A DNA stretch of 64,000 nt, taken from a virus (taxonomy: Duplodnaviria; Heunggongvirae; Uroviricota; Caudoviricetes). This document shows, one piece after another, positions 24,261-54,835 of the stretch. Under the pieces are notes generated by a model. It had not been told where the DNA came from, ran no database searches, and saw nothing but the letters and a program-made list of their open reading frames with translations. Location of the stretch: the IMG/VR virus record IMGVR_UViG_3300031111_000007, positions 1-64,000 of that record. The stretch is one strand, 5' to 3'. Positions within the stretch are counted from its first letter, which is position 1, and the number at the start of each line of letters is the position of its first letter. Made by a program: the position numbers and the translations under genes.

Positions 24261-24348
24261 GGGGAAGTATACCGTAACTGGTAGCGGGGCAGACTGTAAA
24301 TCTGTTGCCGAAAGGCTCTGGTGGTTCAAGTCCATCCTTCCCCACCAA
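24261..24348 (+). tRNA. trnY: tRNA-Tyr (anticodon GTA), long variable arm, CCA encoded
   Basis: GGGGAAG-TA-TACCGTAACTGGTAGCGG-G-GCAGA-CTGTAAA-TCTGT-TGCCGAAAGGCTCT-GGTGGTTCAAGTCCATC-CTTCCCC-A-CCA. Confidence 0.85.
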
Positions 24349-29926: not shown

Positions 29927-30469
29927 TCAAGCAGGGAAGAACGTGCTTATTTCTTCCCTGCTTAACCCATCATCCCGTTTTTCCAAAGTAATGATCGTAT
30001 CGTGAATCGCACCACCATGAGACATAAGAAGTATATGCTCCTGTTTAAATCCTCTCCTTTTTCCCATGCTGTTACTATGATATCCTGCTGTTAAGATCAC
30101 CGCATTTGGTTCTATGATATCCAATAGCTTATTCTTTATCATATTAAATGGTGAAGATATAAAACCATTATACTTAGTCATGGATTTTCTCAAGGCATAT
30201 GGTGGATCAAGAATAACAGTATTAAACTTTGGACCATCCCATTGTTCTACAAACTCCAATGCATCCATATTATAATCTAAATTCTCCATTTTAGGATTAA
30301 GATCATTTCTTATTTCTCTACATCCTTCAGGTAGATTTAGGCTATACTTTCCAGCAAATAGATTTAAAACCATGGGTGGTTGAATATGATTCTCTACCCA
30401 TTCTCTAACTCTTTTATTCCTGAACGTGAAGCGATACAGGGGAGTTCGCATGTAAGTAAACTTTAACAT
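29927..30469 (-). CDS. amino-methyltransferase-like (N6-adenine/N4-cytosine DNA MTase motifs)
   Basis: 180 aa; motif I-like VLNLFAGKYS and motif IV DPPY (ILDPPYALR); 7-nt overlap with upstream TS-like gene. Confidence 0.5.
   Translation of the reverse strand: MLKFTYMRTPLYRFTFRNKRVREWVENHIQPPMVLNLFAGKYSLNLPEGCREIRNDLNPKMENLDYNMDALEFVEQWDGPKFNTVILDPPYALRKSMTKYNGFISSPFNMIKNKLLDIIEPNAVILTAGYHSNSMGKRRGFKQEHILLMSHGGAIHDTIITLEKRDDGLSREEISTFFPA
29929..29963. terminator. bidirectional terminator hairpin (13-bp stem AAGCAGGGAAGAA/TTCTTCCCTGCTT)
   Basis: Sits between convergent plus block (ends 29921) and minus block; embedded in last 12 codons of ORF 29927..30469. Confidence 0.55.
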
Positions 30470-31266
30470 TTATCCTCTACCATACATCTCATCTCAGCGA
30501 AGCTAACAGCATAATCGTAGAGATGCAGTCCTTTAGATACACAAATCATCTCACCTTGTTCTACTCCAATCTCATTTGCCATATGCTCTTGAAGCATAGA
30601 AATCCCGGCCAAATTCGCACTAAATCCCCCCCATGCATCCCAACTACGAAAATGAATACCATTAAAATGTAGTTTGCCATCTTGTATTCTTGTATCGATA
30701 GTTCTCAAACATGGTGGATCAAGTAGAAGCATATCTTTTGGTTGAGCAATCTGCAAACACATCTGATTTGTTCTTGGTGATTTTTTATATTCCTCAATCG
30801 CAAATTCTACCTGAGAAAACCATTTATCACGATCATAAATACAGCTTTCCATTGACCTATAATTACAATGGTTTCTATAAATAACATTTTTCAATCTCAA
30901 TATCTTATCTGACATCTCATCTGAAATACTCACCCTGTTCAAGCGACTCCCGTAGGTATATGACTCATTCTCAGCCATTTCCGAAGATAGTATATAACCA
31001 GCATAGTTAATCAAATAGTCTCTATCTACTGGTGCTACCATATTACTACCTTCTGGCATTACTGGTACAAGTGGGAACCCTTCTGAATCACGTTCCCATG
31101 GCCTTGTAATATGAATCACACAAAAGTCAAGTTCCTTTCTTGTACTACCAGCATAGCTTCCAGAATCGATCTTGAAATCTCTGCCATGTTCAAGTATATT
31201 ATAGATCAACTGGAACCAAACGTCTGGAAGTGTAACACCTTCTATCATCACAATTTTCTGTTTCAT
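30463..31266 (-). CDS. thymidylate synthase-fold enzyme (ThyA / dNMP hydroxymethylase family)
   Basis: 267 aa; catalytic Cys in LLDPPCLRT (compare ThyA ALPPCH); DGKLHFNGIHFRSWDAWGGFSANLAGISML aligns with ThyA [29 protein letters not shown]. Confidence 0.7.
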   Translation of the reverse strand: MKQKIVMIEGVTLPDVWFQLIYNILEHGRDFKIDSGSYAGSTRKELDFCVIHITRPWERDSEGFPLVPVMPEGSNMVAPVDRDYLINYAGYILSSEMAENESYTYGSRLNRVSISDEMSDKILRLKNVIYRNHCNYRSMESCIYDRDKWFSQVEFAIEEYKKSPRTNQMCLQIAQPKDMLLLDPPCLRTIDTRIQDGKLHFNGIHFRSWDAWGGFSANLAGISMLQEHMANEIGVEQGEMICVSKGLHLYDYAVSFAEMRCMVEDKC

Positions 31267-31863: not shown

Positions 31864-32253
31864 TTACATATTCAGTTTAGAAAAATCAACTGCTTTACCA
31901 TCTTTCATAACTTCTGCTGGCGCACGTTGTGGCATACCTTGAGCAGTTACAATACCTGATTCTGCTGCTTTGATTTGTGTAACCCACTGTTCATATGTCT
32001 GAAGCATATGAGCATTTGGTTCACTTTCAACTGCAATACATTCAGGATTTAAAAGAATTTCTTTATCGTAATCTGAGAAAGGTGCTGCCTTACCGAACCC
32101 AACCTGACCCTGCATACCTTGTGCTTGCTGTGGTGGAATTTGAACCACTGCTGCCGGGAAATCAAGCTGATAAAATCCATCCTCAGTTATATCTGTTATT
32201 GCTGTTAATATATTTTCTCCATTCAATAATTTTAATAATTTAATACTTCTCAT
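31864..32253 (-). CDS. hypothetical protein
   Basis: 129 aa ORF directly downstream of epimerase gene. Confidence 0.4.
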   Translation of the reverse strand: MRSIKLLKLLNGENILTAITDITEDGFYQLDFPAAVVQIPPQQAQGMQGQVGFGKAAPFSDYDKEILLNPECIAVESEPNAHMLQTYEQWVTQIKAAESGIVTAQGMPQRAPAEVMKDGKAVDFSKLNM

Positions 32254-33080
32254 TATATCATCTCCTTTATATAATCTTCTAATTTTCTTTCAGGCTTAAA
32301 ACCTGTTAATTGTTCAAGTACAGACGTATCTGCTACTGAACTTTTTGCTCCTGCATTTCTACTATCGGTTAATATATAATGCTGATTTCTGGTTCTTGGA
32401 AACATATTAGCTAAATCAGCAATAGATGTTCCAATACCCGTACCAACATCAATAGGTTCAAAGTAATCAGGCATGGTTGATATTATTTTATAGATTGCTT
32501 CACATACATCATATACATGAATAAAATCTCTCTTTTGTCTACCATCACCATGAACTTCAAATGGTTGGTTTATCTGATACTTGGTAATGAACTGCTTTAC
32601 ACAAGTCTGTTTCTTCTTCAGATATTTGTAAGCACCATAGACATTACCAAGACGTACTACATAAATTTTACCACCATTATCATTGAAGTAATTAGCCAAA
32701 GTTTCACATGTCCATTTCATATTTGCATAGAAACTTGTATGTGGAGTCTTAGCTGCCTGAGAAGAAGTAAACACCACTGGAATACCTAACTCTGTTGCTA
32801 TCTCAAACACATTACCTGCTGCCATTATATTATCCTTTACTGCTCTCCATGGGTCTTCTTCACAAGCAAAGATACCACTGAGTGCTGCAAGATGAATTAC
32901 TCCATCAAAATTCCTTACAATATCCTTGGTAAGTTTATGTGCTGCGGGTAGGTCAGTATTATAATCACAATCATAAAAATGTACATCTTCTAACTTATCA
33001 TCAGACCAATCCTTGAAGGATATATTCTCACCGATATACCCCTTACTACCTGTTATTAAATACCTCTTTATTCCTGCCAT
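32253..33080 (-). CDS. NAD-dependent sugar epimerase/dehydratase (SDR) family protein
   Basis: 275 aa; Rossmann motif YLITGSKGYIGENI, catalytic-like YGAYK. Confidence 0.55.
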   Translation of the reverse strand: MAGIKRYLITGSKGYIGENISFKDWSDDKLEDVHFYDCDYNTDLPAAHKLTKDIVRNFDGVIHLAALSGIFACEEDPWRAVKDNIMAAGNVFEIATELGIPVVFTSSQAAKTPHTSFYANMKWTCETLANYFNDNGGKIYVVRLGNVYGAYKYLKKKQTCVKQFITKYQINQPFEVHGDGRQKRDFIHVYDVCEAIYKIISTMPDYFEPIDVGTGIGTSIADLANMFPRTRNQHYILTDSRNAGAKSSVADTSVLEQLTGFKPERKLEDYIKEMI

Positions 33081-33379
33081 AAGTGTATATGCTCCCTGTT
33101 TGTTTTTTTATCTCCATCTTCTCCGATATCTACTACCTCATCCCAATTTACATCTTCTATATCATCATTAGTAGCATCAGGATTATGAATAAAGATATAA
33201 GCCTTATCATGTCTAATCTTCTCATAATCCTCATCAGAAACATAAATACCGAAACCACCCAATAGATTTCCTGATGCTCCAATATATACAGGAAGTAATT
33301 CGTTTTCTTTACTGACGATATGTGTAGGATGCCATCTTGAAGTATGATCCAATTCATCATTCATTAAAAGTTTCGCCAT
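33068..33379 (-). CDS. hypothetical protein
   Basis: 103 aa acidic ORF. Confidence 0.35.
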   Translation of the reverse strand: MAKLLMNDELDHTSRWHPTHIVSKENELLPVYIGASGNLLGGFGIYVSDEDYEKIRHDKAYIFIHNPDATNDDIEDVNWDEVVDIGEDGDKKTNREHIHLWQE

Positions 33380-34105
33380 TTAACATCTCCCACATCCACC
33401 GAAATCATACCCCTTTAGCCATTCATATTGGTTTATGATATTATGGACTGTTCCTTTTTGTTTTTGTGTCCAAGGTATTGTTCTTCTCGTTAGCCTTGGT
33501 TTTTTCCATACTGTATTTCTCACATTATCTCTCCATATAGGATCAAATGAGATTTCCAAGAAATTCGCCATTTCCTCTAATGTGTTATGCATTCGGGTAA
33601 TAACATACTCATGTCTTACTGTCAACACATCTTCTGATTTTTTTAACCTTACTATCGTTTCATTCAACTCAATGTACTTCTCAATCACGTTATCCAAATG
33701 CGCTTTAACAGAAATTTTACTATTATTTTTGTGATTTAACTTAGCCCATGTAGCCAAGTTATCAAATGGATTTCTCACAACATGAATCCATTTGATAGGA
33801 ACACTAACCTGAGATTTAATAAAACCAAGTCTCTGTGGATTATCTTTTAATGTTACTACTGTTCTGTGACCAGTTTTATCACCTATAACTGTAATCTCTT
33901 GTTTTGGAACATGAGGAATCTGAGTACTTGATTTCCATGTACCTGTAATCAAACTATATGACCTGATATAATTCATATCAACTTTATCACTATTGAATAT
34001 ATTAAGCTGATTTGATACCATACAATTAGGATTGGCATTGAGTATTGCTGCTACTAATGTATGTCCACTACGGGGATATCCCATAAATGATAAGAAGTAT
34101 TTCAT
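33380..34105 (-). CDS. PAPS-dependent sulfotransferase family protein
   Basis: 241 aa; 5'-PSB-like P-loop YPRSGHTLVAAIL and 3'-PB-like HVVRNPFDNLAT. Confidence 0.6.
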   Translation of the reverse strand: MKYFLSFMGYPRSGHTLVAAILNANPNCMVSNQLNIFNSDKVDMNYIRSYSLITGTWKSSTQIPHVPKQEITVIGDKTGHRTVVTLKDNPQRLGFIKSQVSVPIKWIHVVRNPFDNLATWAKLNHKNNSKISVKAHLDNVIEKYIELNETIVRLKKSEDVLTVRHEYVITRMHNTLEEMANFLEISFDPIWRDNVRNTVWKKPRLTRRTIPWTQKQKGTVHNIINQYEWLKGYDFGGCGRC

Positions 34106-34530
34106 AGTTCTCCTAATTTAGTTCTTTTTCTTGTCTGTTCTATATTCAACACCGTATAATGATTAAGTGTGCTAAATGGTAGAAAAAGTTTAATACCTTT
34201 GTTAATGTAAATCAAGTAACAATCCTTACCATTCTTAACTCCTTCTACAAGTTCTTCTGCTACACCAGCACCAATTATACCATCCATAAATGTAGCTCCA
34301 ACAATGATATCATGTGCTCTTGCTATCTCTCTGAAGATTTCAAATGCATTTTCATCTCCTGCTTCCTTTCTTGCCATATAAACATCACCTAACCATTTTT
34401 GATTAGGATTGAAAATATCAATTTCTTCTCCTAACATAGAAACAATTGAAATAATACATTCTATCTCAATATCTTCATCATAATGTACTTTAGGATGTGC
34501 AAAATATACTGTTTTTATTTTATCATCCAT
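34102..34530 (-). CDS. nucleoside 2-deoxyribosyltransferase-like (SLOG/Rossmann) protein
   Basis: 142 aa; KTVYFAHP ... IVGATFMDGIIGAGVAEELVEGVKNGKDCYLI resembles Nuc_deoxyrib_tr signature. Confidence 0.3.
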   Translation of the reverse strand: MDDKIKTVYFAHPKVHYDEDIEIECIISIVSMLGEEIDIFNPNQKWLGDVYMARKEAGDENAFEIFREIARAHDIIVGATFMDGIIGAGVAEELVEGVKNGKDCYLIYINKGIKLFLPFSTLNHYTVLNIEQTRKRTKLGEL

Positions 34531-35219
34531 TCAAATTGACTCCCTTTAAATCTCTTTTTTATTACTTCATAGTTTGGAAGATATACAGAAATATCTTCTT
34601 TGTTTTTCTTCTTAGTAATAGAATACATCTGCTGTTGTTCTACTTCAAAGAAATTACATATTGCTATATTTGCATTGGGTGATAAATATGTTTTATCACC
34701 AATTGTCTCACCTATAATATCCTCATAATATAATACAAGTTTAATCTGTCTTTTGAACTTTCTACCCCAATTCTTATTCTCTTGATTTACCTGAGTAACC
34801 ATGTTGAAAAACTGATCCGGTGATATGGATATTGGATTATGTGCTGTTCTTGCTGCTGTTAAACCTGATATAACTTGTTTAACTAAATTCTTTCGCATCA
34901 AATGAATCATAGGTTTCTTTCCATCTGCTACATAACCATATAACCCATTATGATATTCTATCTGATTATACATCAACTTGAATGCTGTATTCTTATCAGG
35001 ATATTGTTTATAGATATAATTATTGAGATAGTTCTTTGGTTGTTTAAACTTATTCTCTGGTCTTACAAAAGGAATAAAACCAGACTTACGATATTTCGCC
35101 TTTCTACATACATTCACAAACACTTCATCAATCCCAACAATATCAGTATGAGTATTTAAGGCATTTTGTAAGAATGTACTTCCTACTCTCTTATTCTGAA
35201 ATTGTATTGCTCTAATCAT
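34515..35219 (-). CDS. sulfotransferase-like protein (Stf0-like P-loop)
   Basis: 234 aa; N-terminal QFQNKRVGSTFLQNAL (RxGST PAPS-binding loop). Confidence 0.4.
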   Translation of the reverse strand: MIRAIQFQNKRVGSTFLQNALNTHTDIVGIDEVFVNVCRKAKYRKSGFIPFVRPENKFKQPKNYLNNYIYKQYPDKNTAFKLMYNQIEYHNGLYGYVADGKKPMIHLMRKNLVKQVISGLTAARTAHNPISISPDQFFNMVTQVNQENKNWGRKFKRQIKLVLYYEDIIGETIGDKTYLSPNANIAICNFFEVEQQQMYSITKKKNKEDISVYLPNYEVIKKRFKGSQFEWMIK

Positions 35220-35734
35220 ACTATCCCTCTTATCCCTTTAAATCCAACTAAATCTTTTTGTGGAACCATCCAACATGGTTTGCCTCTATTTGGATTATCT
35301 TTGTATTCATCAACCATAGCATCTTTCCCTTTTATCCATCCTATCATTTTAAAGTTAGGCATTTTACCAATTACTAAAATATAAGTATGATTTGGATTAT
35401 CATTAGGTCTTACAATCAATCTTCCATTTTCTCTTTCAGTATGTCTCACTTGTAATATTTTTCCAATATCAGCATTTTTAAAAGTATTGATACCAAATGG
35501 ACAATAAAGTTTTCTGTTTTTACATACTGCTAATTCAGCACCAGCACCTTCGATTTCATAATCCCATGATTTCCCTTTATAGTTAGAATCATTACCAACT
35601 ACATCTCTATGGTATCCACCAAAAATTGATTCTAGTCTTCTTTCTAACCCTGTTATAGCAGCAAGTCTACATTCATGTGTATTCAATTTTACTTTTATGT
35701 TTTTTATTCTTTCATCCATTTTTCTTCTCCACAA
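35216..35734 (-). CDS. hypothetical protein
   Basis: 172 aa ORF in glycan island. Confidence 0.4.
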   Translation of the reverse strand: MWRRKMDERIKNIKVKLNTHECRLAAITGLERRLESIFGGYHRDVVGNDSNYKGKSWDYEIEGAGAELAVCKNRKLYCPFGINTFKNADIGKILQVRHTERENGRLIVRPNDNPNHTYILVIGKMPNFKMIGWIKGKDAMVDEYKDNPNRGKPCWMVPQKDLVGFKGIRGIV

Positions 35735-36365
35735 ATATTACCCATTCATTTTGAAATCCTGTATCTAAATAATCATTATAGATTACCTTACATCCTGTAT
35801 CCTCAACAAAATTATGAAAAATTTGTGGTGAATTGATATAGCTGTAATGCTTTCTTGGATTACCCGGAACCTGATTCAATACCAACATATATCTATTGGT
35901 AACTCTGTACATCTCATCCAATGCCTTCCTGTAATTCGATACAAGACCAAGTACATGATGTGAGAAGACAAAATCATAGCTACCATCTTCGAATTCAAGA
36001 TCACATGCATCTCCAAATTTTACATTTCTACCTTTCTCCTGTGCATATTTTACATATGGTTTTGAATACTCAATACCCAAAGCATCAATACTGTTGTTTA
36101 TAAGATAATCAACAAACTGACCATCTTTAGTTCCAACATCCAAAACAGTATTTTCTGTGAATGCCCAATTTTTATCAATTTGTTCCATAGCCCATTCCCA
36201 TAGCCATATACAACGATCAATAGACTCCCAATCTCTCAAAGGATCACTATCAAGGAATTCCTTTGTATATACTGTTTCATAATCCAGTTTCTTATTGATC
36301 TGTTCACCATTTACTTCTGTTGGTGCATTATACAAACTCTCATCTGTCTTCCATTTCTGTGTCAT
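35712..36365 (-). CDS. class I SAM-dependent methyltransferase
   Basis: 217 aa; motif I VLDVGTKDGQF, post-I acidic, motif II-like YDFVFSHHVL. Confidence 0.6.
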   Translation of the reverse strand: MTQKWKTDESLYNAPTEVNGEQINKKLDYETVYTKEFLDSDPLRDWESIDRCIWLWEWAMEQIDKNWAFTENTVLDVGTKDGQFVDYLINNSIDALGIEYSKPYVKYAQEKGRNVKFGDACDLEFEDGSYDFVFSHHVLGLVSNYRKALDEMYRVTNRYMLVLNQVPGNPRKHYSYINSPQIFHNFVEDTGCKVIYNDYLDTGFQNEWVIFVEKKNG

Positions 36366-36682
36366 ACCAAACCTCTCAAATTATCCATTGCTTGTTTAAC
36401 ATCTTCTAAGATATTGATCTCATCCAATTCAGACAAGAAACTACCAAACCCCATGTTCTTCAGTGTTCCCATAGTTCTCCCATCCATTTTCATTTGTATA
36501 TGGAAAAGACCATCAACGATAGTCTCTAATAAGGTATGTGCCTCAATAACATTATCAGCTTCTACATCCTTCATTGTTAGTGAGACATTTGGTTGGATAG
36601 AGGAATAATCCCCTGTGTTTATTGTAAATTTTTTACTCACAGTTACATCTATTTTCATTTGACCCTCCACATTTTTGACCAC
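36362..36682 (-). CDS. hypothetical protein
   Basis: 106 aa ORF. Confidence 0.35.
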   Translation of the reverse strand: MVKNVEGQMKIDVTVSKKFTINTGDYSSIQPNVSLTMKDVEADNVIEAHTLLETIVDGLFHIQMKMDGRTMGTLKNMGFGSFLSELDEINILEDVKQAMDNLRGLV

Positions 36683-36718
36683 TATACCACAAACCGCAAA
36701 AAAAGATAACCTACTTTT

Positions 36719-37321
36719 TTAAATTTTTTCTACTATAAGTTGTGTTTTAGGTCTATCATCCCATATCAATTTCCATTTATCTTTTGGGAAAAAACTTAGA
36801 AGTTCTTCAAATGATTCGAAATGATACCAATGTCCAAATTTATCAGGAACCTTTTTTGGTTTCTTTTGACAAGGAACCAATACAATCAATCGTCCTTTTG
36901 GTTTCAATGCTTTATGTATATTCTCAAGTGCTTTTTTTGGATCATGACAGTGTTCTAAACTATGAGAAGATATAATTGATCCATATTTTTCTGTTATTGT
37001 TGATTCATGTATATCTAATACCTCACCATTATATCCTCTTGATTTTAATTTCTTAATTGCTTCAGGAAAAATATCAATTCCATATATATCCTTAAAACCA
37101 GCATCTTTCAAATGATCAAATAAATATCCTTCACATGAACCTACTTCAAGTAATGGTTCATTTTTATCCATATATTTAGATACTCGTTTAGTAATAAGAG
37201 TATGTCTTCTGAGAATACCCGGACCCCCATGATATTTAGGATGGTGTTTTTTGTTTACTCTACTACCAGATACTATAAGTCTTTTACCAAGTTCTAATTG
37301 TGATTTTTTGTATTTATTCAT
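36719..37321 (-). CDS. class I SAM-dependent methyltransferase (Methyltransf_11-like)
   Basis: 200 aa; LEVGSCEGYLF (motif I), GIDIFPEAI, YGSIISSHSLEH. Confidence 0.6.
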   Translation of the reverse strand: MNKYKKSQLELGKRLIVSGSRVNKKHHPKYHGGPGILRRHTLITKRVSKYMDKNEPLLEVGSCEGYLFDHLKDAGFKDIYGIDIFPEAIKKLKSRGYNGEVLDIHESTITEKYGSIISSHSLEHCHDPKKALENIHKALKPKGRLIVLVPCQKKPKKVPDKFGHWYHFESFEELLSFFPKDKWKLIWDDRPKTQLIVEKI

Positions 37322-38070
37322 TAAAAATTATATCCTTCCATAAATTCAAATCTTTTCATTTGATCTTTTACTTTATTAATTCTTTTCTCATTCCACCATG
37401 AAACTGAATTTCTTGTTTTTCTTGGTTTATTCCAAACAACCTTTCTACAATGCTTTAAATATGCTGGTGTGGTTTCAATTTCCAAATGATCACACATACG
37501 TTGAACTTCTTTTTTAGTATTCTTTACTATATCTTCTAATCTTACTGTAATACAATCTCTATTCTCATCAAATACTTTTTGTACTGATTCTGCTTGTTTA
37601 AAATAAATATCAATAGCTCCATCTGGTTTCCAATTATGTTTAGTAAAAGTGGTTATATTATCATATGGATTTCTCTGTACATGAATCCATTTAACAGGTA
37701 ATTTTATAACATCATCAAATACTCTATAGAATTCATCTGGTTGTTTCATTAAAGAATTAGATGTCCCACCACCCTTTTTACCACCTATTACCAATGGAAT
37801 ACCACTTGTCATTCCTTTAAACTTTCCATGATCAAATCCACCCCACGATTGATTTCTGCCTTTTGTTTTTTGATCTATTTTAAAAAGTATCCATTTTAAT
37901 ATTTGATCTTGATCTGTAAATCTTTTTTGAATCGGTGTAAATTCATTTTTAATATATATGTTAGGATGAAAATCCAATAAAGCAGCAGTAAGACTATTAC
38001 CACTTCTCCCCCATCCAATAAAAGCCAAATAATATTTTATTTTATCAATTGGTTTATCTTTTATTCCCAT
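37321..38070 (-). CDS. PAPS-dependent sulfotransferase family protein
   Basis: P-loop FIGWGRSGNSLTAALL and 3'-PB-like HVQRNPYDNITT, paralogous to 33380..34105; start taken at internal Met to limit overlap with SQD1 gene. Confidence 0.6.
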   Translation of the reverse strand: MGIKDKPIDKIKYYLAFIGWGRSGNSLTAALLDFHPNIYIKNEFTPIQKRFTDQDQILKWILFKIDQKTKGRNQSWGGFDHGKFKGMTSGIPLVIGGKKGGGTSNSLMKQPDEFYRVFDDVIKLPVKWIHVQRNPYDNITTFTKHNWKPDGAIDIYFKQAESVQKVFDENRDCITVRLEDIVKNTKKEVQRMCDHLEIETTPAYLKHCRKVVWNKPRKTRNSVSWWNEKRINKVKDQMKRFEFMEGYNF

Positions 38071-39244
38071 TATAATCCACCCTTTTATCTTTATTCCATA
38101 CAGAAGTACATATGATCTTAGGCATGATAACATTTGCTCTATACTTGTGAGCTATATCAATTACTTCTTCCAGTAATCCATCATCCAAGTAAATCGGTGT
38201 AAGACCTAAGTTGAGTAAACCATCGTTGTGAAATTTTAGATCGTTCTTAGGGTCTTCATTTCTTGGATTATCATAATATCTAACTTCTGCTTTGGTCATT
38301 TGGCTAACTTTCTTAGCAAGATCATCAATATTTAAACATTCTGTAGTTTGATTGAAAATTCTCACCCTATCACCCCTCTCAGGTGGATTGTCTACTGCCA
38401 AATTAATACACTCCACGCTATTCTGGATATGAATAAATGCTCTTGTCTGACCACCAGTACCATAAACAGTTAATGGATGTCCTACTTGACTCTGCATGAG
38501 AAACCTATTCAATACCGTACCATAATCACCATCATAGTCAAATCTATTGATAAGGTTAGCATTGAGTTTGGTTTCATCTGTTTGTGTACCCCATACTATA
38601 CCTTGATGTAGATCAGTAATTCTCACCTTGTCATTCTTATTGAAGTATAAGAAACTAATAGCATCAGTACACTTAGTCATATGATAAATCGAACCCGGAT
38701 TAGGTGGATACATGATTTCAATCTCTTTGGCTTGTCCATCTACATCCACTGTAACAGGCAGATAACCTTCTGGTATGGTCATTCCTACGTCTGAATACCC
38801 ATAGTAGCCTGTAGTGCCTAAATGCACCAAATGAATGTCTAAGCCCGATTCTACGATGGCACATAAAATATTATTAGTTGCCATTGTATTATTCTGGATT
38901 GTATATCGCTTATGATACGATGATTTCATTGAATAAGGTGCTGCTCTTTGTTCAGCTAAATGAATAATCGTATGTGGTTCGTACTCTTTAATCAATGTGA
39001 GTAATCTATGATAGTTATCCGATATATCAAAATTCTCGTATAATATCTGTTTACTACTAACATCTTTCCATGTTTCAATTCTTGTACCAATAGGTTGAAT
39101 AGGTGTAAGTGAATCACACTCAAGTTCAACGTCAGTAATTCTTCTCGCTAGATTATCTACTATACATACATCATATCCTGCTCTTGAAAGTCTCAATGCA
39201 GTAGGCCAACCAACAAACCCATCACCACCTAGTATTAATATCAT
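38054..39244 (-). CDS. sqdB: UDP-sulfoquinovose synthase (SQD1/SqdB/Agl3 homolog)
   Basis: 396 aa; blocks ILGGDGFVGWPTALRLS, YDVCIVDNLARR, SLTPIQPIG, LAEQRAAPYSM, HLGTTGYYGY, TDLHQGIVWGTQTDET, LNRFLMQSQVGHPLTVYGTGGQTRAFIHIQ match SQD1 blocks as I recall them. Confidence 0.75.
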   Translation of the reverse strand: MILILGGDGFVGWPTALRLSRAGYDVCIVDNLARRITDVELECDSLTPIQPIGTRIETWKDVSSKQILYENFDISDNYHRLLTLIKEYEPHTIIHLAEQRAAPYSMKSSYHKRYTIQNNTMATNNILCAIVESGLDIHLVHLGTTGYYGYSDVGMTIPEGYLPVTVDVDGQAKEIEIMYPPNPGSIYHMTKCTDAISFLYFNKNDKVRITDLHQGIVWGTQTDETKLNANLINRFDYDGDYGTVLNRFLMQSQVGHPLTVYGTGGQTRAFIHIQNSVECINLAVDNPPERGDRVRIFNQTTECLNIDDLAKKVSQMTKAEVRYYDNPRNEDPKNDLKFHNDGLLNLGLTPIYLDDGLLEEVIDIAHKYRANVIMPKIICTSVWNKDKRVDYNGNKR

Positions 39245-40059
39245 ATTCCCATCCCTGTTCTCTGTTTAAATTCTTGTTTGAATTTTCTTAGGTTATCATT
39301 CTTTGGTCCTTTATTAGCACCCCATAAAATATGCTGATTACCTTGACCTGTGAGACTAAATTGATTCTTAGGAAGATCGCCCCATTTCAAATCATTTTCT
39401 ATTCTTTTATATACATCATATAGTGATATTTGACCGAATCCCTTTGTTCGCTTAGTTGGTGGTACAGAATCAATTTCTTTTACCCATAGATCAAGTAATT
39501 TTCTTGACTTCTCACCCACATTATATCCTTGAACACAACAGCATATTGCATGTTGTCTTCTATTATGAGGAACTTTACCAAATTTTTTTATCTGTTTTTC
39601 AATCCTAAATATAGAAGTAAAATCATTATTCTTTATAATCTCAATCCAAGGATCAATTGGTTTTCTAATATAAGAATCAACATCAAAATTCAACATCAAT
39701 TCTCCATCTTCTAATGAATCATGTACTTCTTTAATTTCCTTAATTCTATCTTCAGCAGAAATCAAAAGTTTCCATATCTTATTATTCATATTGATCTTGA
39801 TTTTCTCAGTTTCATTTTTGAATTTCATTAATTGAGCTTTCGGAATCTTTGCTCTTTTTGCTAAATTATCGTAATCCAAATCCTTATTGATAATTGTTAC
39901 ATCATCATACATACCCTTCAGAACATCTATTCTCTTTTGATCTAAATTTCTTGTTGAGAGGATCATTTTATATCCATCTCCATTGGATTGTTTAAATGAC
40001 TTCACGAATAATTTTGCCCAAGGAAAATACCCTTCTGTAAAATAACTATGTATTAACAT
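39241..40059 (-). CDS. hypothetical protein, possible GT-A-like nucleotide-sugar transferase
   Basis: 272 aa; DVD acidic motif (LNFDVDSY); weak. Confidence 0.3.
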   Translation of the reverse strand: MLIHSYFTEGYFPWAKLFVKSFKQSNGDGYKMILSTRNLDQKRIDVLKGMYDDVTIINKDLDYDNLAKRAKIPKAQLMKFKNETEKIKINMNNKIWKLLISAEDRIKEIKEVHDSLEDGELMLNFDVDSYIRKPIDPWIEIIKNNDFTSIFRIEKQIKKFGKVPHNRRQHAICCCVQGYNVGEKSRKLLDLWVKEIDSVPPTKRTKGFGQISLYDVYKRIENDLKWGDLPKNQFSLTGQGNQHILWGANKGPKNDNLRKFKQEFKQRTGMGI

Positions 40060-40068
40060 TATATCTCC

Positions 40069-40635
40069 TTATACCCATTTCCACCATGTATAATCATCAC
40101 CGATCATATAGTTTTTATCAAAACAATCTTTTACAGCTTTTTTTACTCTCCATCCTTTATGACCATAATCAGGCCAACTTTCATAATCATGTCCACATAA
40201 TAATCCACCCTTCTTCATCTTTGGTAGATAAAGTTTGATGTCTTCTTTGACATATTCATAATCATGGTTTCCATCGATGAAACATAAATCAAGACTTTCA
40301 TCTGGAATATGAACATGAGCTTCACTACTCAGCATTCTTAATATTTCTATTTTATCTTCCCATTCAGCACACTTATTTTTAAATACTTCAAGATATCCAC
40401 TACATCGCTTGTCGGTGTAGATATGTGCTTTTGGTGTTCTATAAGATATCTTACTATAATCAGTCCAAGGATCAATAGCATAATATTTTTCTATTGAAGG
40501 TAATAATGATAAAAGACCAAATGATGTATGACCTCTTTGTACTCCTATTTCAGCAACCACCTTTGGATTTTTATCTTTTAAAAGATTAGCCATCACTTCC
40601 CATCTTGCTTTTTTTCCTTTTCTTCCCATAATCAC
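40069..40635 (-). CDS. class I SAM-dependent O-methyltransferase (CmcI/TylF-like)
   Basis: 188 aa; VAEIGVQRGHTS, LCFIDGNHDYEYVKEDIKLYLPKMKKGGLLCGHDY. Confidence 0.6.
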   Translation of the reverse strand: MIMGRKGKKARWEVMANLLKDKNPKVVAEIGVQRGHTSFGLLSLLPSIEKYYAIDPWTDYSKISYRTPKAHIYTDKRCSGYLEVFKNKCAEWEDKIEILRMLSSEAHVHIPDESLDLCFIDGNHDYEYVKEDIKLYLPKMKKGGLLCGHDYESWPDYGHKGWRVKKAVKDCFDKNYMIGDDYTWWKWV

Positions 40636-41585
40636 TCCTTAATTTTAACCAAATCAAACATTCTTCTCAACTTTGTCTTTGCGTTATCATCAAATTCAAA
40701 TATCTTCTTGGTTACAAATAATACTCTTTTTTCTCTACCTTTTCTAAATTTTGTTAATCTTTTTATCATATATTGTTTAGTTCTTGTAGCATCATTTGCG
40801 TTTTTCATCTTTGGATATTTTTTCTCATAATCATCTAATGTTTTTTCTAATAAAAATCCAAGAAAATAACCATGCTCACATCTCTCTATAACATCATCTA
40901 TTATCATTATATTTTCTTTTGGCAGATCAGGTTTCAATGTATTTAATGCAGATAATAATTGAGCATAACAACCTTTTATATCTCTCCGATTTTTTTCTTC
41001 TCCACCAGTTATTTTATTCCAATATTTAATTCTATCTAAATTTTTAAACTCAAATTTCTTATTAGACCATTCTTCTATTTCATTCTCTATTTGTCCTGAA
41101 TATTTTGCTATTTCTTCCTGTGGAAAATTCTTGAAAAAATGAGGAAAAACTCTACCTTCAAATTTACCTTCTTTCTCTAAAAAGAACTTTAGTTTTTTAC
41201 TTGCAATCTGATTGGTCACTAAAATTCTATCTAATATCAATCGAATATGATTAAATGCATTATATTGTTCTTCAGTATAATCATCTATCAACTCAAAAAA
41301 ATAAATCGTAAATCCAATGCTTTTCAATACAACACATATATGTTTATGTTCTTTTCCCCAATTAGATACCTTGACATTTTCTTTTTCATTTTCTTCATCT
41401 AAAGCAACAATCCATTTACCAAAATCTTTCCATATATGAGAATGTAAAGAGTATTCATTACTTCCCGGTATATATCCATCAATATCAGGAACCTTTACAT
41501 TTTCACTTGTTCTTCTTGTCTTATAAAACTTATAATTTAACTTACACTCCATTAAAAAATTCCTCCCAATAAGGAGCAACAGCAT
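40632..41585 (-). CDS. hypothetical protein
   Basis: 317 aa ORF in glycan island. Confidence 0.4.
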   Translation of the reverse strand: MLLLLIGRNFLMECKLNYKFYKTRRTSENVKVPDIDGYIPGSNEYSLHSHIWKDFGKWIVALDEENEKENVKVSNWGKEHKHICVVLKSIGFTIYFFELIDDYTEEQYNAFNHIRLILDRILVTNQIASKKLKFFLEKEGKFEGRVFPHFFKNFPQEEIAKYSGQIENEIEEWSNKKFEFKNLDRIKYWNKITGGEEKNRRDIKGCYAQLLSALNTLKPDLPKENIMIIDDVIERCEHGYFLGFLLEKTLDDYEKKYPKMKNANDATRTKQYMIKRLTKFRKGREKRVLFVTKKIFEFDDNAKTKLRRMFDLVKIKE

Positions 41586-42681
41586 CCCATGTCCGATACT
41601 CTCTTATATATTCTCGCAAATTCTCACCCATTTTCTTTCTCTTGATTGGACTTTTTTTCATCCATTCAATTGCTTCATAAAATTGTCCATAATTATTTAT
41701 AACTTTTCCATGTATATTATTCTCTATAATATCACCACATAATCCAGCATTTGTACATATTACTGGTATTCCCATAGCACCAGCTTCTAATACAGGTAAA
41801 GGACCACCAGCGAATTTATCAGGAACCAAATAACAACTAATCCCTTTATAAAAATTCGGCATTTCATCCTTGTTATATAATGATATTTCTATTTTCTTAT
41901 ACTGATTAACAAATGGTTTAAATCTTTTTATTTGATTTCTAGCTCCACCAAAATCTTTAGAGCCAGCGGCAATACTCAATTTAAAATCACCCTTATTCCA
42001 AGCATTCATAATCCAATGCCCCCTTCTGTGATCTTTTTGAGCACCTTCCAAATACTGTAACCATCCTGCATATCCAGCAACAAAATCATCTCTAACTTCC
42101 TTCTGGTAGAATTTATCAATATCAATACCTTGTGGAGTAAAACATAAATTAGTCAAACCAAATCCAATTTTAGTAAAAGATATACTCACTCTATTACCAC
42201 CAATTGAACTAATTGAACATTTATCTTCTTTTCTAATACCAAACTTCTTTTTTACGGCAGCTATATTTGGTTTTCCATTATTTTTTATTTTTATAGTTGT
42301 TTTTTTAGTCTTAGAAAATGGATATATAGTAACACGATGTTTTGTCTGCTCACTAATATAAGACATTCTCATATTCTCAAATTCATGATTCTGTAATATA
42401 TTAGCTTGAGATTCAGTTGCTGGTCCACCATGAAATGTTGTGCATATCTTTGAGTAATCTGGTAAATTCTTAGGTAGATATCCTGACATCATAAGATATA
42501 TGATATCATACTTCTCATAATCTTCTTTCCAGTTAATAACAGGCTTACCCATCTTAGTAGACATCTTATCGGAATACTTTACCGTAAAATCAAACCTATC
42601 TTTCAATGCACTGATAATACCATCACACATAGAATCGACAGCCCATCCGGGTATATCTGGAACAATTAAAATTTTCTTCAT
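41542..42681 (-). CDS. GT4 (GT-B) glycosyltransferase
   Basis: 379 aa; C-terminal YLVPDKFAGGPLPVLEAGAMGIPVICTNAGLCGDIIENNIHGKVIN (E..G...EA.A.G.PVI motif). Confidence 0.7.
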   Translation of the reverse strand: MKKILIVPDIPGWAVDSMCDGIISALKDRFDFTVKYSDKMSTKMGKPVINWKEDYEKYDIIYLMMSGYLPKNLPDYSKICTTFHGGPATESQANILQNHEFENMRMSYISEQTKHRVTIYPFSKTKKTTIKIKNNGKPNIAAVKKKFGIRKEDKCSISSIGGNRVSISFTKIGFGLTNLCFTPQGIDIDKFYQKEVRDDFVAGYAGWLQYLEGAQKDHRRGHWIMNAWNKGDFKLSIAAGSKDFGGARNQIKRFKPFVNQYKKIEISLYNKDEMPNFYKGISCYLVPDKFAGGPLPVLEAGAMGIPVICTNAGLCGDIIENNIHGKVINNYGQFYEAIEWMKKSPIKRKKMGENLREYIREYRTWDAVAPYWEEFFNGV

Positions 42682-43625
42682 AGTTCTTTTATAATATTTA
42701 AAACTGCTTTTATTCTCACCATACTTGAATGATGTTGCTGAATATAATTGAATGCGTTTTCTCTTATCTCTGTTGTATCTTTATCTTTATATCTTTCCCA
42801 TAACTTCTTTACATACTGTGGTTCATCGTAGTTATAGAATGGTACATATAGATCATCAGGAATGAACTCATCCATTCCATTGAATTTACGCATGATCATA
42901 AAAGCACCAGTACCTAAATACTGAAACGGTCTAACATCCATATATCCCGGTATCTCATAACCTACACATAGTCCTAAAATACACTTAGCGGATACACTCA
43001 ACTCAGGTGTTCTACTTCTCAAATCTTGTCCTGATTGAGTCTTGAATATTTTTATAGGCATTACTTTCTGAAGTGCTTCTATAAATCCTGCTCTATTATC
43101 AGCCCATCCAGTTCTATGAGCACCCGGACTACCAGTAAAAACAGGATTTTTAAAAGCCAAATCAGGTGCAAAATCAGCCATCTTATCATAGGTAAGGGAT
43201 GAGTATGGACAAAAGAAAACAGGCACGTTAAATACCTTCTCACAGTTCATAAGCAACGGATATGAACCAACCAAAGCTATGTCAAACGCACCACTGATAT
43301 CTCCCATATAACGGTCTTTAGTTCTCGCATCATTACAAGTATGAATTACTTTCACATCTATATGTTTCTTTATATCCTTAAAGAAATTCAAAACTCTATC
43401 TGTAGGATGAATATGATTATGAAAACTTAAATGAGTAAATATCATATCAGGTTTGAAATCAATCAATTTATTCTTTATCTGTTGTAATGGTGTTGATTTA
43501 TAATCTATATGTCTTACATCAACACCATTTAACATTAATCCCTGAGTAAATGTAAGAACAAACCAACTATAACCTAAATTCGTATTTCCTAATATAACAG
43601 CTTTCATAACGTAAATTTTCTCCAC
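42678..43625 (-). CDS. CgeB-like/GT-B glycosyltransferase-like protein
   Basis: 315 aa; RPFQYLGTGAFMI resembles CgeB family R.FE.la.G. Confidence 0.4.
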   Translation of the reverse strand: MEKIYVMKAVILGNTNLGYSWFVLTFTQGLMLNGVDVRHIDYKSTPLQQIKNKLIDFKPDMIFTHLSFHNHIHPTDRVLNFFKDIKKHIDVKVIHTCNDARTKDRYMGDISGAFDIALVGSYPLLMNCEKVFNVPVFFCPYSSLTYDKMADFAPDLAFKNPVFTGSPGAHRTGWADNRAGFIEALQKVMPIKIFKTQSGQDLRSRTPELSVSAKCILGLCVGYEIPGYMDVRPFQYLGTGAFMIMRKFNGMDEFIPDDLYVPFYNYDEPQYVKKLWERYKDKDTTEIRENAFNYIQQHHSSMVRIKAVLNIIKEL

Positions 43626-43858
43626 AAAATATCATGTCTTATTCTTTCTTCCATTTTCTCTTTTAGTATTTCTGGTACAGGAAGTGGTTTCTTATATACA
43701 CATGATTGGCATATTTCATCCTGAAACAATAAATGAGCAATTAAACAATCACCATCATAACTACACCAATCAGTTTTATCAAAACCAACATTAATATACT
43801 TTTTTTCAGTAGCACTCATACAATTTTCATTACCCAAACCTGTTGGATCAGTACTCAT
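43604..43858 (-). CDS. Cys-rich small protein
   Basis: 84 aa; multiple Cys. Confidence 0.3.
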   Translation of the reverse strand: MSTDPTGLGNENCMSATEKKYINVGFDKTDWCSYDGDCLIAHLLFQDEICQSCVYKKPLPVPEILKEKMEERIRHDILWRKFTL

Positions 43859-43859
43859 A

Positions 43860-44042
43860 TTAATCTCCTTTCAAAAAATCCCATCCATTCTTTTCTAAAT
43901 GATCGGCTAACTTTTCAAGTGGTATCTTTTCCTCTAATATATATGTAGGAGCACCACACCAATCACATAAAATATTCTTTTCATGATCATATGGTATTCT
44001 ATCAAACTCATGGTGACAAGAACAACATTTATAATGTGGCAT
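43860..44042 (-). CDS. zinc-ribbon small protein
   Basis: 60 aa; MPHYKCCSCHHEF...CDWCGAP. Confidence 0.3.
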   Translation of the reverse strand: MPHYKCCSCHHEFDRIPYDHEKNILCDWCGAPTYILEEKIPLEKLADHLEKNGWDFLKGD

Positions 44043-44043
44043 A

Positions 44044-45231
44044 TTAACTCCTTTTAAATATATCTCTAAACATTTTTCTATAATTTTCAGCTTGAATCTT
44101 CCAAGTCCAATTTTCCTCTATTGTTTTTCTCGCATTATTTCCCATTCTAATTAGTTCATCTCTATTATTTTTGAAATAAAGAATTTTCTCAATATAAGCA
44201 CCAATTTTTCTTGGAACTATAAATCCATTATATCCATCTTTAATAAATTCAGGCATATTACCAATTTTATTTGATATGATTGGTCTACCACATGCGGCAG
44301 CTTCCAATGCAGGATTAGGTGTACCATCTTCTGTGGATGCTACCATAAATACATCCATTTCATTATATATTTTTGGCATTTCACTATGTGGTAGTTTATC
44401 CATATAAGTTCTCAAATTAGTAGCACTCTTACAACCAGTAGCTTGAATAGCAGGTAAAATAAATTCTCTCTGTCCTTTAGCTGGACATTCTTTACCAACA
44501 TGACCTACGATTAACTCACCTTCTTTTCTTATAGGTTTAATAGGCTTAAAAAGTTCTTCATCGACTCCATTTGGTACATAATATGCTCTTTTAAATCCCA
44601 TATCTTGAAGTTCTTTTAGAAGCATTATACTATTGGCATGATGATTCCCGGCCATTTTCATTTTTGGTAATATAACATTTCTTTTTCTATGTGCTGTTAT
44701 ACCACATATCTTTTTCTTCTTAGGAACCTTATTGAGAAAATCAATATAGGAAAATCCATATATAAAATAAAGATCATAACTATTCTGATCTATCAAATAG
44801 AATCTACGATCACCATTATCTCCTATCACATAATCAATATCAATCTGAAATTCATCAGACAAATATTTTTTTATATACTCAGATTTAATCCACCATGCCC
44901 ATCCTTTTACATCTGATATAAAAAGAATTCTTGGCTTTCTTCCATTTTCCAAAACAATAGTCTCCGGTTCGTATTCTATTGAATCCTCATATCTATTAAC
45001 GATAAGTTCTAATATCTTTCCCTGTCCTTTTTCTTTTTTATTTCTATAATTCTCATCTGATTTGCTATAATTCTCTTTTACTTTTTTTAACTTATCGATT
45101 TCATTTTTTAATGATTCAAGCCTCCAATCCTTCATTTCACTGAGAATATTTGTCTGATCTTTTGTAAATCCCAACTCTTTCATTAAAAAAGTTTTTATTT
45201 TTAATAATTCTATGCTATTCATTCTAAACAA
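44044..45231 (-). CDS. GT4 (GT-B) glycosyltransferase
   Basis: 395 aa; VASTEDGTPNPALEAAACGRPIISNKIGNMPEFIKDGYNGFIV. Confidence 0.75.
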   Translation of the reverse strand: MFRMNSIELLKIKTFLMKELGFTKDQTNILSEMKDWRLESLKNEIDKLKKVKENYSKSDENYRNKKEKGQGKILELIVNRYEDSIEYEPETIVLENGRKPRILFISDVKGWAWWIKSEYIKKYLSDEFQIDIDYVIGDNGDRRFYLIDQNSYDLYFIYGFSYIDFLNKVPKKKKICGITAHRKRNVILPKMKMAGNHHANSIMLLKELQDMGFKRAYYVPNGVDEELFKPIKPIRKEGELIVGHVGKECPAKGQREFILPAIQATGCKSATNLRTYMDKLPHSEMPKIYNEMDVFMVASTEDGTPNPALEAAACGRPIISNKIGNMPEFIKDGYNGFIVPRKIGAYIEKILYFKNNRDELIRMGNNARKTIEENWTWKIQAENYRKMFRDIFKRS

Positions 45232-46073
45232 TTCCTTATCACATCAATTGCATGTTCTATCGTAAATTCATTCCAATCACTTTTTATTCTCTCAAAGATT
45301 TCTTCTATAATAGTATCTTTAAGTTTAGAAAACATTGAAACATGTAAATCAAGTTCTTTTATATCTTCAATTATAAGTCCATTAAATAAACCATGAAAAT
45401 ACTTGTGTTGGATTGGAAGAAAAGGTAAACATCCATTTCTCATTGCATCAAAATATCTGCTATCAAAATAGCCTCTTTGATATGACTTCTTACTGTCTAT
45501 AGCTAAAGTAGTCTTTCCTACCGTATAACCAAGATCAATCTCGTTTAAGTTTTTTGTTTTATATTCTTCTCTCTTGAATTCAGATAATAGACTATTCATT
45601 GAATAGGCAACTTTCTTATCAGTAAATAACATAGCGTACTCAGCAATCCACTTCTCAAATTCAGATATATTATAGTCTATACCAGAATATATCAAATCAT
45701 ATTCTCTCTCATCATTATATTCTGTTTTTATCTCAAGAGAATCTATCCATTCAGGTAGATATCTAAACCCCTGCCTACCAGAATTTAGTGCTGGTTCAAA
45801 TAAACTGACATTGAATTTCTTAATCCAATTTACTTCTTTCTCATTAAGGTAAAAATACCTATCAAATATAACAATAGGAATATCTTTCTTGATATAGTAT
45901 TGAAGTAAGGATGCCTGTTTTAACCAAGCATCCTCACTATTAGGCAACTTAGGCACCCAATCAATGAATAAACCACTTATATCAGGAAATGAATCTTCCT
46001 TTATAATATCCACCGGCATATCTAATTTTTTCACAAATTCATGATTTACTTCTTTTGACAGGATTCCTATCAT
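45219..46073 (-). CDS. hypothetical protein, possible GT-B C-terminal-like domain
   Basis: 284 aa; RYFDAMRNGCLPF loosely resembles GT1 EAMA.G.P motif. Confidence 0.3.
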   Translation of the reverse strand: MIGILSKEVNHEFVKKLDMPVDIIKEDSFPDISGLFIDWVPKLPNSEDAWLKQASLLQYYIKKDIPIVIFDRYFYLNEKEVNWIKKFNVSLFEPALNSGRQGFRYLPEWIDSLEIKTEYNDEREYDLIYSGIDYNISEFEKWIAEYAMLFTDKKVAYSMNSLLSEFKREEYKTKNLNEIDLGYTVGKTTLAIDSKKSYQRGYFDSRYFDAMRNGCLPFLPIQHKYFHGLFNGLIIEDIKELDLHVSMFSKLKDTIIEEIFERIKSDWNEFTIEHAIDVIRNCLE

Positions 46074-53381: not shown

Positions 53382-53434
53382 ATTTCTATCCTCTAATATT
53401 ATTTATATTATTTATATTTTTTTTATTTCACATA

Positions 53435-54826: not shown

Positions 54827-54835
54827 ATTAACTAT

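Follow-up and report, generated by a model that had tools for sequence, protein, structure and literature searches.

In the present study we analysed a stretch of 64,000 nucleotides from an uncultured large phage (positions 1 to 64,000 of the IMG/VR record IMGVR_UViG_3300031111_000007, hereafter the window), the minus strand of which carries at 32253-46073 a gene island of about 14 kb that likely makes a sulfo-sugar glycan. The island comprises 20 open reading frames (ORFs) whose ends overlap or almost abut, has a GC content of 29-34% and shows the strongly negative GC skew of the remaining minus-strand block, while a scan for promoters and terminators gave the same counts as in shuffled sequence. 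The window is phage DNA, because it encodes a fused SbcC/SbcD nuclease, a UvsX-like recombinase, proteins with tail and tail-fibre PHROG matches, a dUTPase, 16 tRNA genes and RNA-repair genes. Host contamination as the origin of the island was considered and ruled out, as the island is embedded in conserved phage synteny. A sulfo-glycan island had been proposed in an earlier reading of this DNA, here called the original prediction, and all ORFs named in it are present at or near their predicted positions. For comparison, we used 50,697 genome records of cultured or deposited phages and a profile scan of IMG/VR, which recovered SQD1 homologues (39-86% identical) in at least 80 viral contigs; the frequencies given below cover those 80. 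Comparison loci are cited by L numbers, the sister contig IMGVR_UViG_3300028883_000036 (107 kb) being L001/L019/L021.

The ORF at 38054-39244 encodes a homologue of the UDP-sulfoquinovose synthases SQD1, SqdB and Agl3. It matches Arabidopsis SQD1 (PDB 1qrr, residues 2-385) with an E-value of 3e-91 and is 42% identical to it over 376 aligned positions, i.e. over the full length, which bears out the homology claimed in the original prediction. The NCBIfam model for UDP-sulfoquinovose synthase (NF041015) was matched from position 3 to 367 of 384 (E 5e-95), and the next-best families, GalE and RmlB, reached only 38-40 bits as compared to 319. The catalytic Thr, Tyr and Lys, on which the earlier homology claim had been made to depend, are kept (phage T144, Y187 and K191, corresponding to SQD1 T145, Y182 and K186), as is the GxxGxxG motif in the form GGDGFVG. 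The family-specific residues are retained as well, phage H188, H95, E98, Q99 and R100 being the equivalents of SQD1 H183, H96, E99, Q100 and R101. In Agl3, the equivalents of SQD1 H96, R101, Y182 and K186 are essential (Agl3 H95 and R101 are cited; PMC4388408). The best inference from the sequence is thus that 38054-39244 makes UDP-sulfoquinovose.

The nearest cellular homologues, 60-67% identical, come from Desulfobacteraceae and from one metagenome-assembled genome (MAG) of the Rhizobiaceae. In Desulfosarcina the gene is accompanied by a Sulfotransfer_3-GT2-GT4 fusion, WcbI and GT2 genes, in the Rhizobiaceae MAG by RmlD and an adenosine 5'-phosphosulfate (APS) kinase protein, and in other cellular neighbourhoods by a GT4 gene or a GT2-methyltransferase fusion. 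Since the closest cellular homologues sit in glycan clusters and not in sulfolipid operons, the clade of the window's SQD1 homologue is a glycan-associated branch of the family. The possibility that the island is an operon for the sulfolipid sulfoquinovosyl diacylglycerol (SQDG) was ruled out in view of these relatives and of a set of tailoring enzymes that goes far beyond the needs of lipid synthesis. As a separate observation, in one viral locus (L003, 8372-10630) an insertion of about 350 residues that resembles an intein splits the SQD1 homologue inside its catalytic YxxxK motif, between SIYHL and SKCQDA; the first residue of the insertion is Cys, and its end reads CGN, followed by Ser. 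Inteins tend to occupy conserved sites of functionally important proteins, and we therefore count this position toward a functional SQD1 homologue.

The start of the SQD1-like gene is overlapped by the ORF at 39241-40059, which does not match Pfam GT8 (PF01501) even at an E-value of 10 and gave no result in a sequence-profile search of the PDB. Its AlphaFold2 (AF2) model (predicted local distance difference test, pLDDT, of 95) has a GT-A glycosyltransferase fold, for which Foldseek retrieved XXYLT1, LgtC, the UGGT catalytic domain and glycogenin (E 3e-8 to 1e-7, template modelling score of about 0.55) and, as the closest viral match, a Klosneuvirus glycosyltransferase (GT). The two Asp residues of its DxD motif, D126 and D128, do not vary among 34 homologues, and every one of its 39 homologues is unannotated. 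On the strength of the structure model, the protein is firmly predicted to be a GT8-like retaining GT-A glycosyltransferase and represents a candidate sulfoquinovosyltransferase of a new family; a weak match to a sulfate-binding protein has been superseded by the model. The gene co-occurs with SQD1 in L001, L003, L004, L027, L030, L036, L037, L041, L042, L100 and L107. By hhalign, the family showed no relation to the GT8-like cluster of the T4-like contigs described below or to a Rhizobiaceae neighbour gene. Upstream of the SQD1 homologue of L003, a tandem fusion of two GT8-like domains was seen at 6501-8375.

A second glycosyltransferase could be assigned by structure to the first island gene (45219-46073), which has no Pfam family. 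Its AF2 model (pLDDT 93) is a compact GT-B fold with PDB matches to SenB, O-GlcNAc transferase homologues, SdgB and TarM (best E 4e-7), so that a GT-B glycosyltransferase is a firm prediction; its 73 homologues are all without annotation, and those at the same position in L021 and L107 are 51-55% identical. The two firm GT4 enzymes of the original prediction both exceed the Pfam Glycos_transf_1 cut-off of 26.4 bits, namely 44044-45231 (E 7e-17, 62 bits), which has an N-terminal extension of about 100 residues and is 60-61% identical in L021 and L107, and 41542-42681 (E 1e-14, 54.9 bits), which lies in the variable middle of the island. The three weaker candidates fared differently. While 45219-46073 and 39241-40059 are now firm by their structure models, 42678-43625 remains a weak GT-B-like candidate (Pfam Glyco_trans_1_2, E 2e-5, 24.8 bits against a cut-off of 25 bits); it is conserved (66-86% identical in L021, L028, L029, L107 and L108), had no match in a profile search of PDB sequences and showed no significant hhalign relation to the 45219-46073 family. 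The ORF at 40632-41585 carries no GT signal and has no Pfam, PHROG or PDB match, profile search included; it is a conserved protein (49-52% identical in L107 and L108) that in this phage group always lies just upstream of the GT8-like and SQD1 genes. The two glycosyltransferases found by structure, including the candidate sulfoquinovosyltransferase family, are new to the present analysis.

Sulfotransferases of the type dependent on 3'-phosphoadenosine 5'-phosphosulfate (PAPS) are encoded at 33380-34105 (Sulfotransfer_1, E 3e-9, 37.2 bits, cut-off 22 bits) and 37321-38070 (Sulfotransfer_3, E 1e-7, 32.7 bits, cut-off 27 bits). Their 5'-phosphosulfate- and 3'-phosphate-binding motifs read PRSGHT and VVRNPFDNLAT in the former and GRSGNS and VQRNPYDNITT in the latter, the two thus sharing P/GRSGxT/S and RNPxDNxxT, and the latter starts at 38070, as supported by the gene call in L018. 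Both had been called clear sulfotransferases, with the proviso that they might turn out to match unrelated P-loop families; instead, they match sulfotransferase families and contain both PAPS-binding motifs. A possible third enzyme at 34515-35219 is homologous to these two by hhalign (95% probability, E 3e-8) and has the invariant motifs RVGSTF and HLMRKNLVKQVIS, with R109...S118, although Pfam gave only an E-value of 0.02 (15.6 bits, under the cut-off) and the PDB match to NodH was weak (E 1.2); it is best described as a putative, divergent PAPS-type sulfotransferase. The expected three S-adenosylmethionine (SAM) methyltransferases were recognised by Pfam at 35712-36365 (Methyltransf_11, E 1e-15), 36719-37321 (Methyltransf_23, E 3e-21) and 40069-40635 (Methyltransf_24, E 3e-18). 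The last of these forms a conserved trio with the GT8-like and SQD1 genes, its homologues adjoining SQD1 in L001, L030, L036, L037, L041, L042 and L100.

The island ends with an extended short-chain dehydrogenase/reductase (SDR) at 32253-33080, a nucleotide-sugar epimerase/reductase with TGSKGYIG and YANMK motifs (Pfam Epimerase, E 2e-27). The original prediction had counted two SDR epimerases or dehydratases, and this is the only one besides the SQD1 homologue. For the deoxyribosyltransferase-like protein at 34102-34530 (flavodoxin-like fold), a profile of 52 homologues matched PDB 7m5h at an E-value of 0.005 over profile positions 1-118; the family has an invariant Glu in GVAxE, and PF05014 was matched by 2 of the 52 homologues, so that its assignment as nucleoside 2-deoxyribosyltransferase-like is weakly supported. 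The remaining ORFs encode a 60-residue zinc-ribbon-like protein (43860-44042; weak Zn_ribbon_8 match, E 0.003; 47% identical ORF in L107), an 84-residue protein without family match (43604-43858), a conserved 106-residue protein without family match (36362-36682; 44% identical in L001 and L012), a conserved 103-residue protein (33068-33379; 58% identical in L001) and a phrog_18407 protein (35216-35734; PHROG E 1e-21). The gene for the last has no counterpart in the sister phage or any related locus and may be a mobile insertion.

Each of the 20 island proteins contains at most one weak hydrophobic segment and no predicted transmembrane segment, and they are therefore presumably cytoplasmic. 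With no protein exceeding that one weak segment, the island seems to be without flippase, polymerase, transporter or priming enzyme; hydrophobicity and Pfam revealed no Wzx, Wzy, flippase, polymerase, ABC transporter or polyprenyl-phosphate priming transferase among the 20 ORFs, and no Pfam family for a priming phosphoglycosyltransferase, flippase, polymerase or transporter was found in the window or in the related islands. Likewise, no cys-type genes for the supply of sulfite or PAPS were seen in the scanned ORFs of the window or in the related loci, and the phage would thus depend on its host for both.

At least six related contigs of large phages also contain the island, its ends being conserved and its middle variable. 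The sister contig is syntenic with the window (45-86% protein identity) across the fibre genes, SbcCD, UvsX, the island and the thymidylate synthase (TS)-like and DPPY methyltransferase-like genes. In the sister island, the middle differs in containing hexapeptide acyltransferases, WbqC and extra sulfotransferases; a structure exposed at the surface would be expected to vary in its glycan genes in this way. The same layout is found in L028 (236 kb), L029 (191 kb), L107 (45 kb) and L108 (28 kb), as well as in the small contigs L012 and L004, whose bins are labelled 'Woesearchaeota' or 'Thermoplasmata'. Among more distant large phages, the contigs L026 (181 kb) and L027 (110 kb) combine SQD1 with sulfotransferases, methyltransferases and GTs, and a minimal module of GT4-like, GT8-like, SQD1 and Methyltransf_24 genes is present in L030, L036, L037, L041, L042 and L100. 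As an aside, L027 (GCA_905333785.1, contig CAJOVN010000001.1) contains 50 in-frame TGA codons in 15 genes and not one in-frame TAA or TAG; because the TGA codons of its SQD1 gene align with the invariant Trp13 and Trp218, the sequence points to a code 4-like reading of TGA as Trp.

A further group of about 48 of the 80 contigs listed is T4-like, with PhoH, SegE GIY-YIG and T4 RNase H genes. Around SQD1, and in the same orientation, these contigs have a GT25 gene and about three ORFs that are weakly GT8-like, mostly no more than 3 kb away, and the SQD1 homologues (L043-L099 and others), about 50% identical to that of the window, have a GTMGVYGYS loop; no literature report of sqdB-type genes in T4-like phages was found. 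Among the 50,697 phage records, in contrast, tblastn revealed no SQD1 homologue, only generic epimerases at 24-25% identity, and megablast found no match to the island. The pathway, described as highly unusual in the original prediction, is so for cultured phages (0 of 50,697 with an SQD1 homologue) and not for uncultured viral contigs (at least 80 in IMG/VR, in which the gene usually has GT8-like genes next to it). That the module is widespread in uncultured viruses and was not found among cultured phages is a new result of this work, and our literature searches found no report of sulfotransferase or sulfo-sugar islands in phages.

On the other side of the recombination genes, the Ser-tract fibre genes that had been predicted to flank the island are present as five consecutive minus-strand genes (53435-63959), which encode putative fibre or adhesin proteins with PHROG tail and tail-fibre matches and which we propose as acceptors. 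Their poly-Ser tracts are near-pure, 45-299 residues long, and lie between globular SPRY, F5/8-type-C and tail-like domains; Ser and Thr together (S+T) make up 21-40% of each protein, the maximum of 40% being that of 54836-57685, whose near-pure Ser tracts extend to about 180 residues. As the tracts mix all six Ser codons, selection seems to act on the protein rather than repeat slippage on the DNA. Homologues or tracts of this kind are found in the sister contig (L021) and in L024, L028 and L029. Beyond this phage group, the minimal module lies directly beside poly-Thr-tract proteins of 500-1170 residues in the unrelated viral contigs L036, L037 and L100, and SQD1 lies 3-4 kb from poly-Ser proteins in L062 (1415 residues) and L106 (1371 residues, 50% S+T). 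Of the 8 loci that have the GT8-like family, 3 contain a poly-Ser or poly-Thr protein within 10 kb, as compared to 2 of the 72 that lack the family (Fisher p 0.006, for loci that are not independent of one another). This genomic link of the module to poly-Ser/poly-Thr structural proteins is likewise new.

With regard to these proteins, some additional observations can be recorded. The putative fibre run includes a sixth protein (52983-53381) with a TDTQIQSVSAAAENYA repeat and then spans 52983-63959 on the minus strand, and the poly-Thr protein regions lie at 2525-7710 in L036, at 3900-7911 in L037 and at 4546-7786 and 13401-18909 in L100. The 16 tRNA genes of the window (7126-13753 and 24262-24347), 15 of which form a 6.6-kb minus-strand cluster among small ORFs, include none for tRNA-Ser, despite the poly-Ser genes. 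A literature search for polyserine in phage fibres gave nothing useful.

Taken together, these data suggest a pathway in which the SQD1 homologue would convert host UDP-glucose and host sulfite into UDP-sulfoquinovose, as its homology implies, and the adjoining GT8-like GT-A enzyme would transfer the sulfoquinovose, as the linkage of the two genes and the pairing of SqdB with the glycogenin-like SqdD in Rhodobacter suggest. Three or four GT-B enzymes might prime the glycan on Ser and extend it with other sugars, the three sulfotransferases, supplied with host PAPS, and the three SAM methyltransferases might decorate it, and the extra SDR might tailor another nucleotide sugar. Judging from co-occurrence, the most likely acceptor would be the long poly-Ser tracts of the phage's own fibres, which would then carry a polyanionic, mucin-like O-glycan coat. 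From these sequences, we consider it about an even chance that the island is a cytoplasmic O-glycosylation system of the phage which places a sulfoquinovose-containing glycan on the Ser tracts of its fibres. Virion proteins as such are the acceptor with a probability that we would likewise put near one half, and among the targets named in the original prediction, i.e. virion proteins, DNA bases and host glycans, the evidence favours virion proteins.

Several of our observations weigh against this O-glycosylation pathway. In its active-site loop, the SQD1 homologue has GTTGYYG where SQD1 and Agl3 have GTMGEYG (Met146 to Thr, Glu148 to Tyr), and its NCBIfam score of 318.8 bits is under the equivalog cut-off of 575 bits. 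The missing cys-type genes belong here as well. On the acceptor side, the virion location of the poly-Ser proteins rests on weak PHROG tail matches, the poly-Ser and poly-Thr proteins had no tblastn homologue in the 50,697 phage records, and the tracts could be plain flexible linkers. The island lies amid DNA-metabolism genes at 7-18 kb from the fibre genes rather than adjoining them, and about 60 T4-like contigs with SQD1 and GT8-like genes have no S/T-tract protein within 10 kb.

The last point leads to the alternative that the island remodels the host envelope by modifying a lipid-linked or lipid acceptor, such as the sugars of lipopolysaccharide (LPS) or capsule or an SQDG-like sulfoquinovosyl lipid, which we regard as rather unlikely for the window, with something like one chance in four in its favour, although host-envelope or lipid modification is plausible especially for the T4-like contigs. 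Its purpose could be superinfection exclusion or membrane adaptation, with export by host flippases. In about 48 T4-like contigs, SQD1 is accompanied by GT8-like and GT25 (LPS-type) genes away from any S/T-tract protein, the cellular homologues sit in polysaccharide clusters, and the lack of transmembrane helices in the island is compatible with this alternative, as lipid-acting GT4 and GT8 enzymes are peripheral proteins without such helices. To our knowledge, moreover, the only bacterial pathway characterised so far in which SqdB works with a GT8-like enzyme, SqdD, is that of sulfolipid synthesis. On the other hand, neither the island nor the related islands contain a priming phosphoglycosyltransferase, flippase, polymerase or transporter, the module adjoins poly-Ser/poly-Thr structural proteins in several lineages, and three sulfotransferases, three methyltransferases and four to five GTs far exceed what a sulfolipid needs.

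A second alternative concerns the chemistry and not the acceptor. The SQD1 clade of the window might act on a different substrate (e.g. UDP-GlcNAc), employ a different nucleophile or go no further than a 4-keto-5,6-ene or 6-deoxy product, in which case the sulfur of the glycan would come from the sulfotransferases only. The variant loop is the reason why UDP-sulfoquinovose synthesis is not certain, and in Agl3 the loop mutant M145A is inactive and E147A retains 12% activity (PMC4388408). The form GT[TM]G[VY]YG, in place of GTMGEYG, is present in every one of the 120 closest homologues in the database and in 79 of the 80 viral loci listed, and a loop so widely shared is a feature of the clade and not a sign of decay; both this and the score well under the equivalog cut-off would fit a different chemistry, and our literature searches found no characterised member of the clade. 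We nevertheless hold this alternative to be improbable, given the full-length identity to SQD1, the conserved Thr, Tyr, His and Lys together with the equivalents of H96, E99, Q100 and R101, the much lower GalE and RmlB scores, and a constant linkage to sulfotransferases in the phage islands and to a sulfotransferase or APS kinase in the cellular clusters.

Finally, the TS-fold enzyme might form a 5-hydroxymethylpyrimidine to which the GTs attach an anti-restriction sulfo-glycan on phage DNA, an idea prompted by the divergent TS-fold gene, DPPY methyltransferase-like gene and dUTPase that flank the island in a DNA-metabolism region, by the deoxyribosyltransferase-like protein within it, and by phage GTs known to hypermodify DNA (as cited in PMC12619734). 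The TS-fold protein (30463-31266) is very divergent, with a ThyA match limited to its C-terminal half and PPCL in place of PPCH, and keeps the catalytic Cys and the uracil-type Asn; together with the adjoining 180-residue DPPY-motif methyltransferase-like protein (29927-30469) it forms the flanking TS-fold/DNA-methyltransferase pair of the original prediction, and both genes are kept beside the island in the sister phage. Hypermodification of DNA is nonetheless highly improbable, as no island ORF matches the T4 alpha- or beta-glucosyltransferase families, no 5-hydroxymethyldeoxyuridine kinase or similar hypermodification gene was seen, the retained uracil-specifying Asn means that the TS-like enzyme could be a plain thymidylate synthase, the module also occurs beside structural S/T-tract genes without a TS-like neighbour, and known DNA glycans consist of one to three sugars and are not known to carry sulfate.

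Elsewhere in the window, the ORF at 48634-51816 fuses SbcD-like and SbcC-like subunits into one protein of 1060 residues, a fusion that L028, L029 and the sister contig share. The phage group also conserves, between its SbcCD and UvsX genes, a gene for a 118-residue GGQ-motif protein (48281-48637), whose homologues in L028 and L029 are annotated PF00472 (RF-1/peptidyl-tRNA hydrolase domain). Near the tRNA cluster lie RNA-modification and repair genes (150-746, 4134-5591, 17898-18896 and 19211-20245), a set made up of a SpoU methylase, a phrog_850 'RNA-binding protein', an RNA ligase and an RlaP nucleotidyltransferase. At 16463-17314, a GmrSD_N (DUF262) domain protein is encoded (E 5e-18), a domain that forms the N-terminus of type IV restriction enzymes directed against modified DNA.

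Sulfoquinovose is a known constituent of thylakoid-type sulfolipids and of archaeal N-glycans. Here we speculate, as a tentative generalisation that falls somewhat short of an even chance, that widespread uncultured large phages coat tail fibres bearing mucin-like poly-Ser or poly-Thr stalks with a dense O-glycan that contains sulfoquinovose and is sulfated and methylated, by means of a GT8-like sulfoquinovosyltransferase family. If true, this would be, as far as the literature we found goes, the first case of sulfoquinovose in an O-linked protein glycan and of a bacteriophage that makes a sulfated glycan, and it would amount to a viral counterpart of proteoglycans. Viruses would then rank among the makers of sulfo-sugars and sulfated glycans, SQD1-type enzymes would gain a new use in O-glycans on viral fibres, and both an unannotated GT8-like family and the extreme poly-Ser/poly-Thr tracts of the fibres would be given a function. 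A polyanionic coat could influence host recognition, adhesion to particles or mucus and protease resistance, and as the genes are present in at least 80 IMG/VR contigs, environmental organosulfur cycling may be touched as well.

An earlier report lists a viral UDP-sulfoquinovose synthase, encoded on a Mu-like contig of the Cariaco Basin, among auxiliary metabolic genes (PMC7785012). That report differs from our data in that it describes a lone gene, read as boosting host N-glycosylation, and neither an island, nor sulfotransferases, nor a link to viral structural proteins. With SQD1 of Arabidopsis, SqdB of bacteria and Agl3 of Sulfolobus, the phage homologue shares the extended SDR fold and the catalytic and family residues, and it differs from them in its GTTGYYG loop, in its score under the equivalog cut-off and in lying in a glycan island rather than in a sulfolipid operon or an archaeal N-glycosylation setting. 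Rossak and co-workers are said to have described, in 1995, the sqdB and sqdD genes of Rhodobacter sphaeroides, SqdD reportedly being a glycogenin-like GT8 enzyme. The pairing of a UDP-sulfoquinovose synthase gene with a GT8-type retaining GT-A enzyme recurs in many viral contigs, whereas the phage GT8-like protein has no detectable similarity to Pfam GT8, its acceptor is probably not diacylglycerol, and no equivalent of SqdC or SqdA was recognised in the phage.

Giant viruses such as chloroviruses and mimiviruses also use nucleotide-sugar enzymes, GTs and methyltransferases of their own for surface fibrils (PMC9614988), but the window belongs to a bacteriophage, and sulfoquinovose or sulfation was not met in giant viruses, for which no dedicated search was made. 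Closer to our case, it has been proposed for mycobacteriophages that GTs of the phage attach glycans, in the cytoplasm, to structural proteins of that phage (Freeman et al. 2023, as cited in PMC12619734), which is what the genes of the window suggest for its fibres. As far as that account goes, the acceptors there are the C-termini of capsid and tail-tube subunits and not internal poly-Ser tracts of fibres, and the pathway of the window adds a sulfo-sugar synthase and sulfotransferases. In Gram-positive bacteria, the cytoplasmic GT-B (GT4) enzymes GtfA/GtfB and SdgA/SdgB O-glycosylate the Ser-rich tracts of fibrillar adhesins (serine-rich-repeat and SD-repeat proteins, respectively). The proposed phage system resembles these in its Ser-rich tracts and GT-B enzymes, SdgB being among the fold matches of 45219-46073; it departs from them in being phage-encoded, in lacking a demonstrated sequence homology to GtfA or SdgB, and in the sulfonation, sulfation and methylation that it would add to the glycan.

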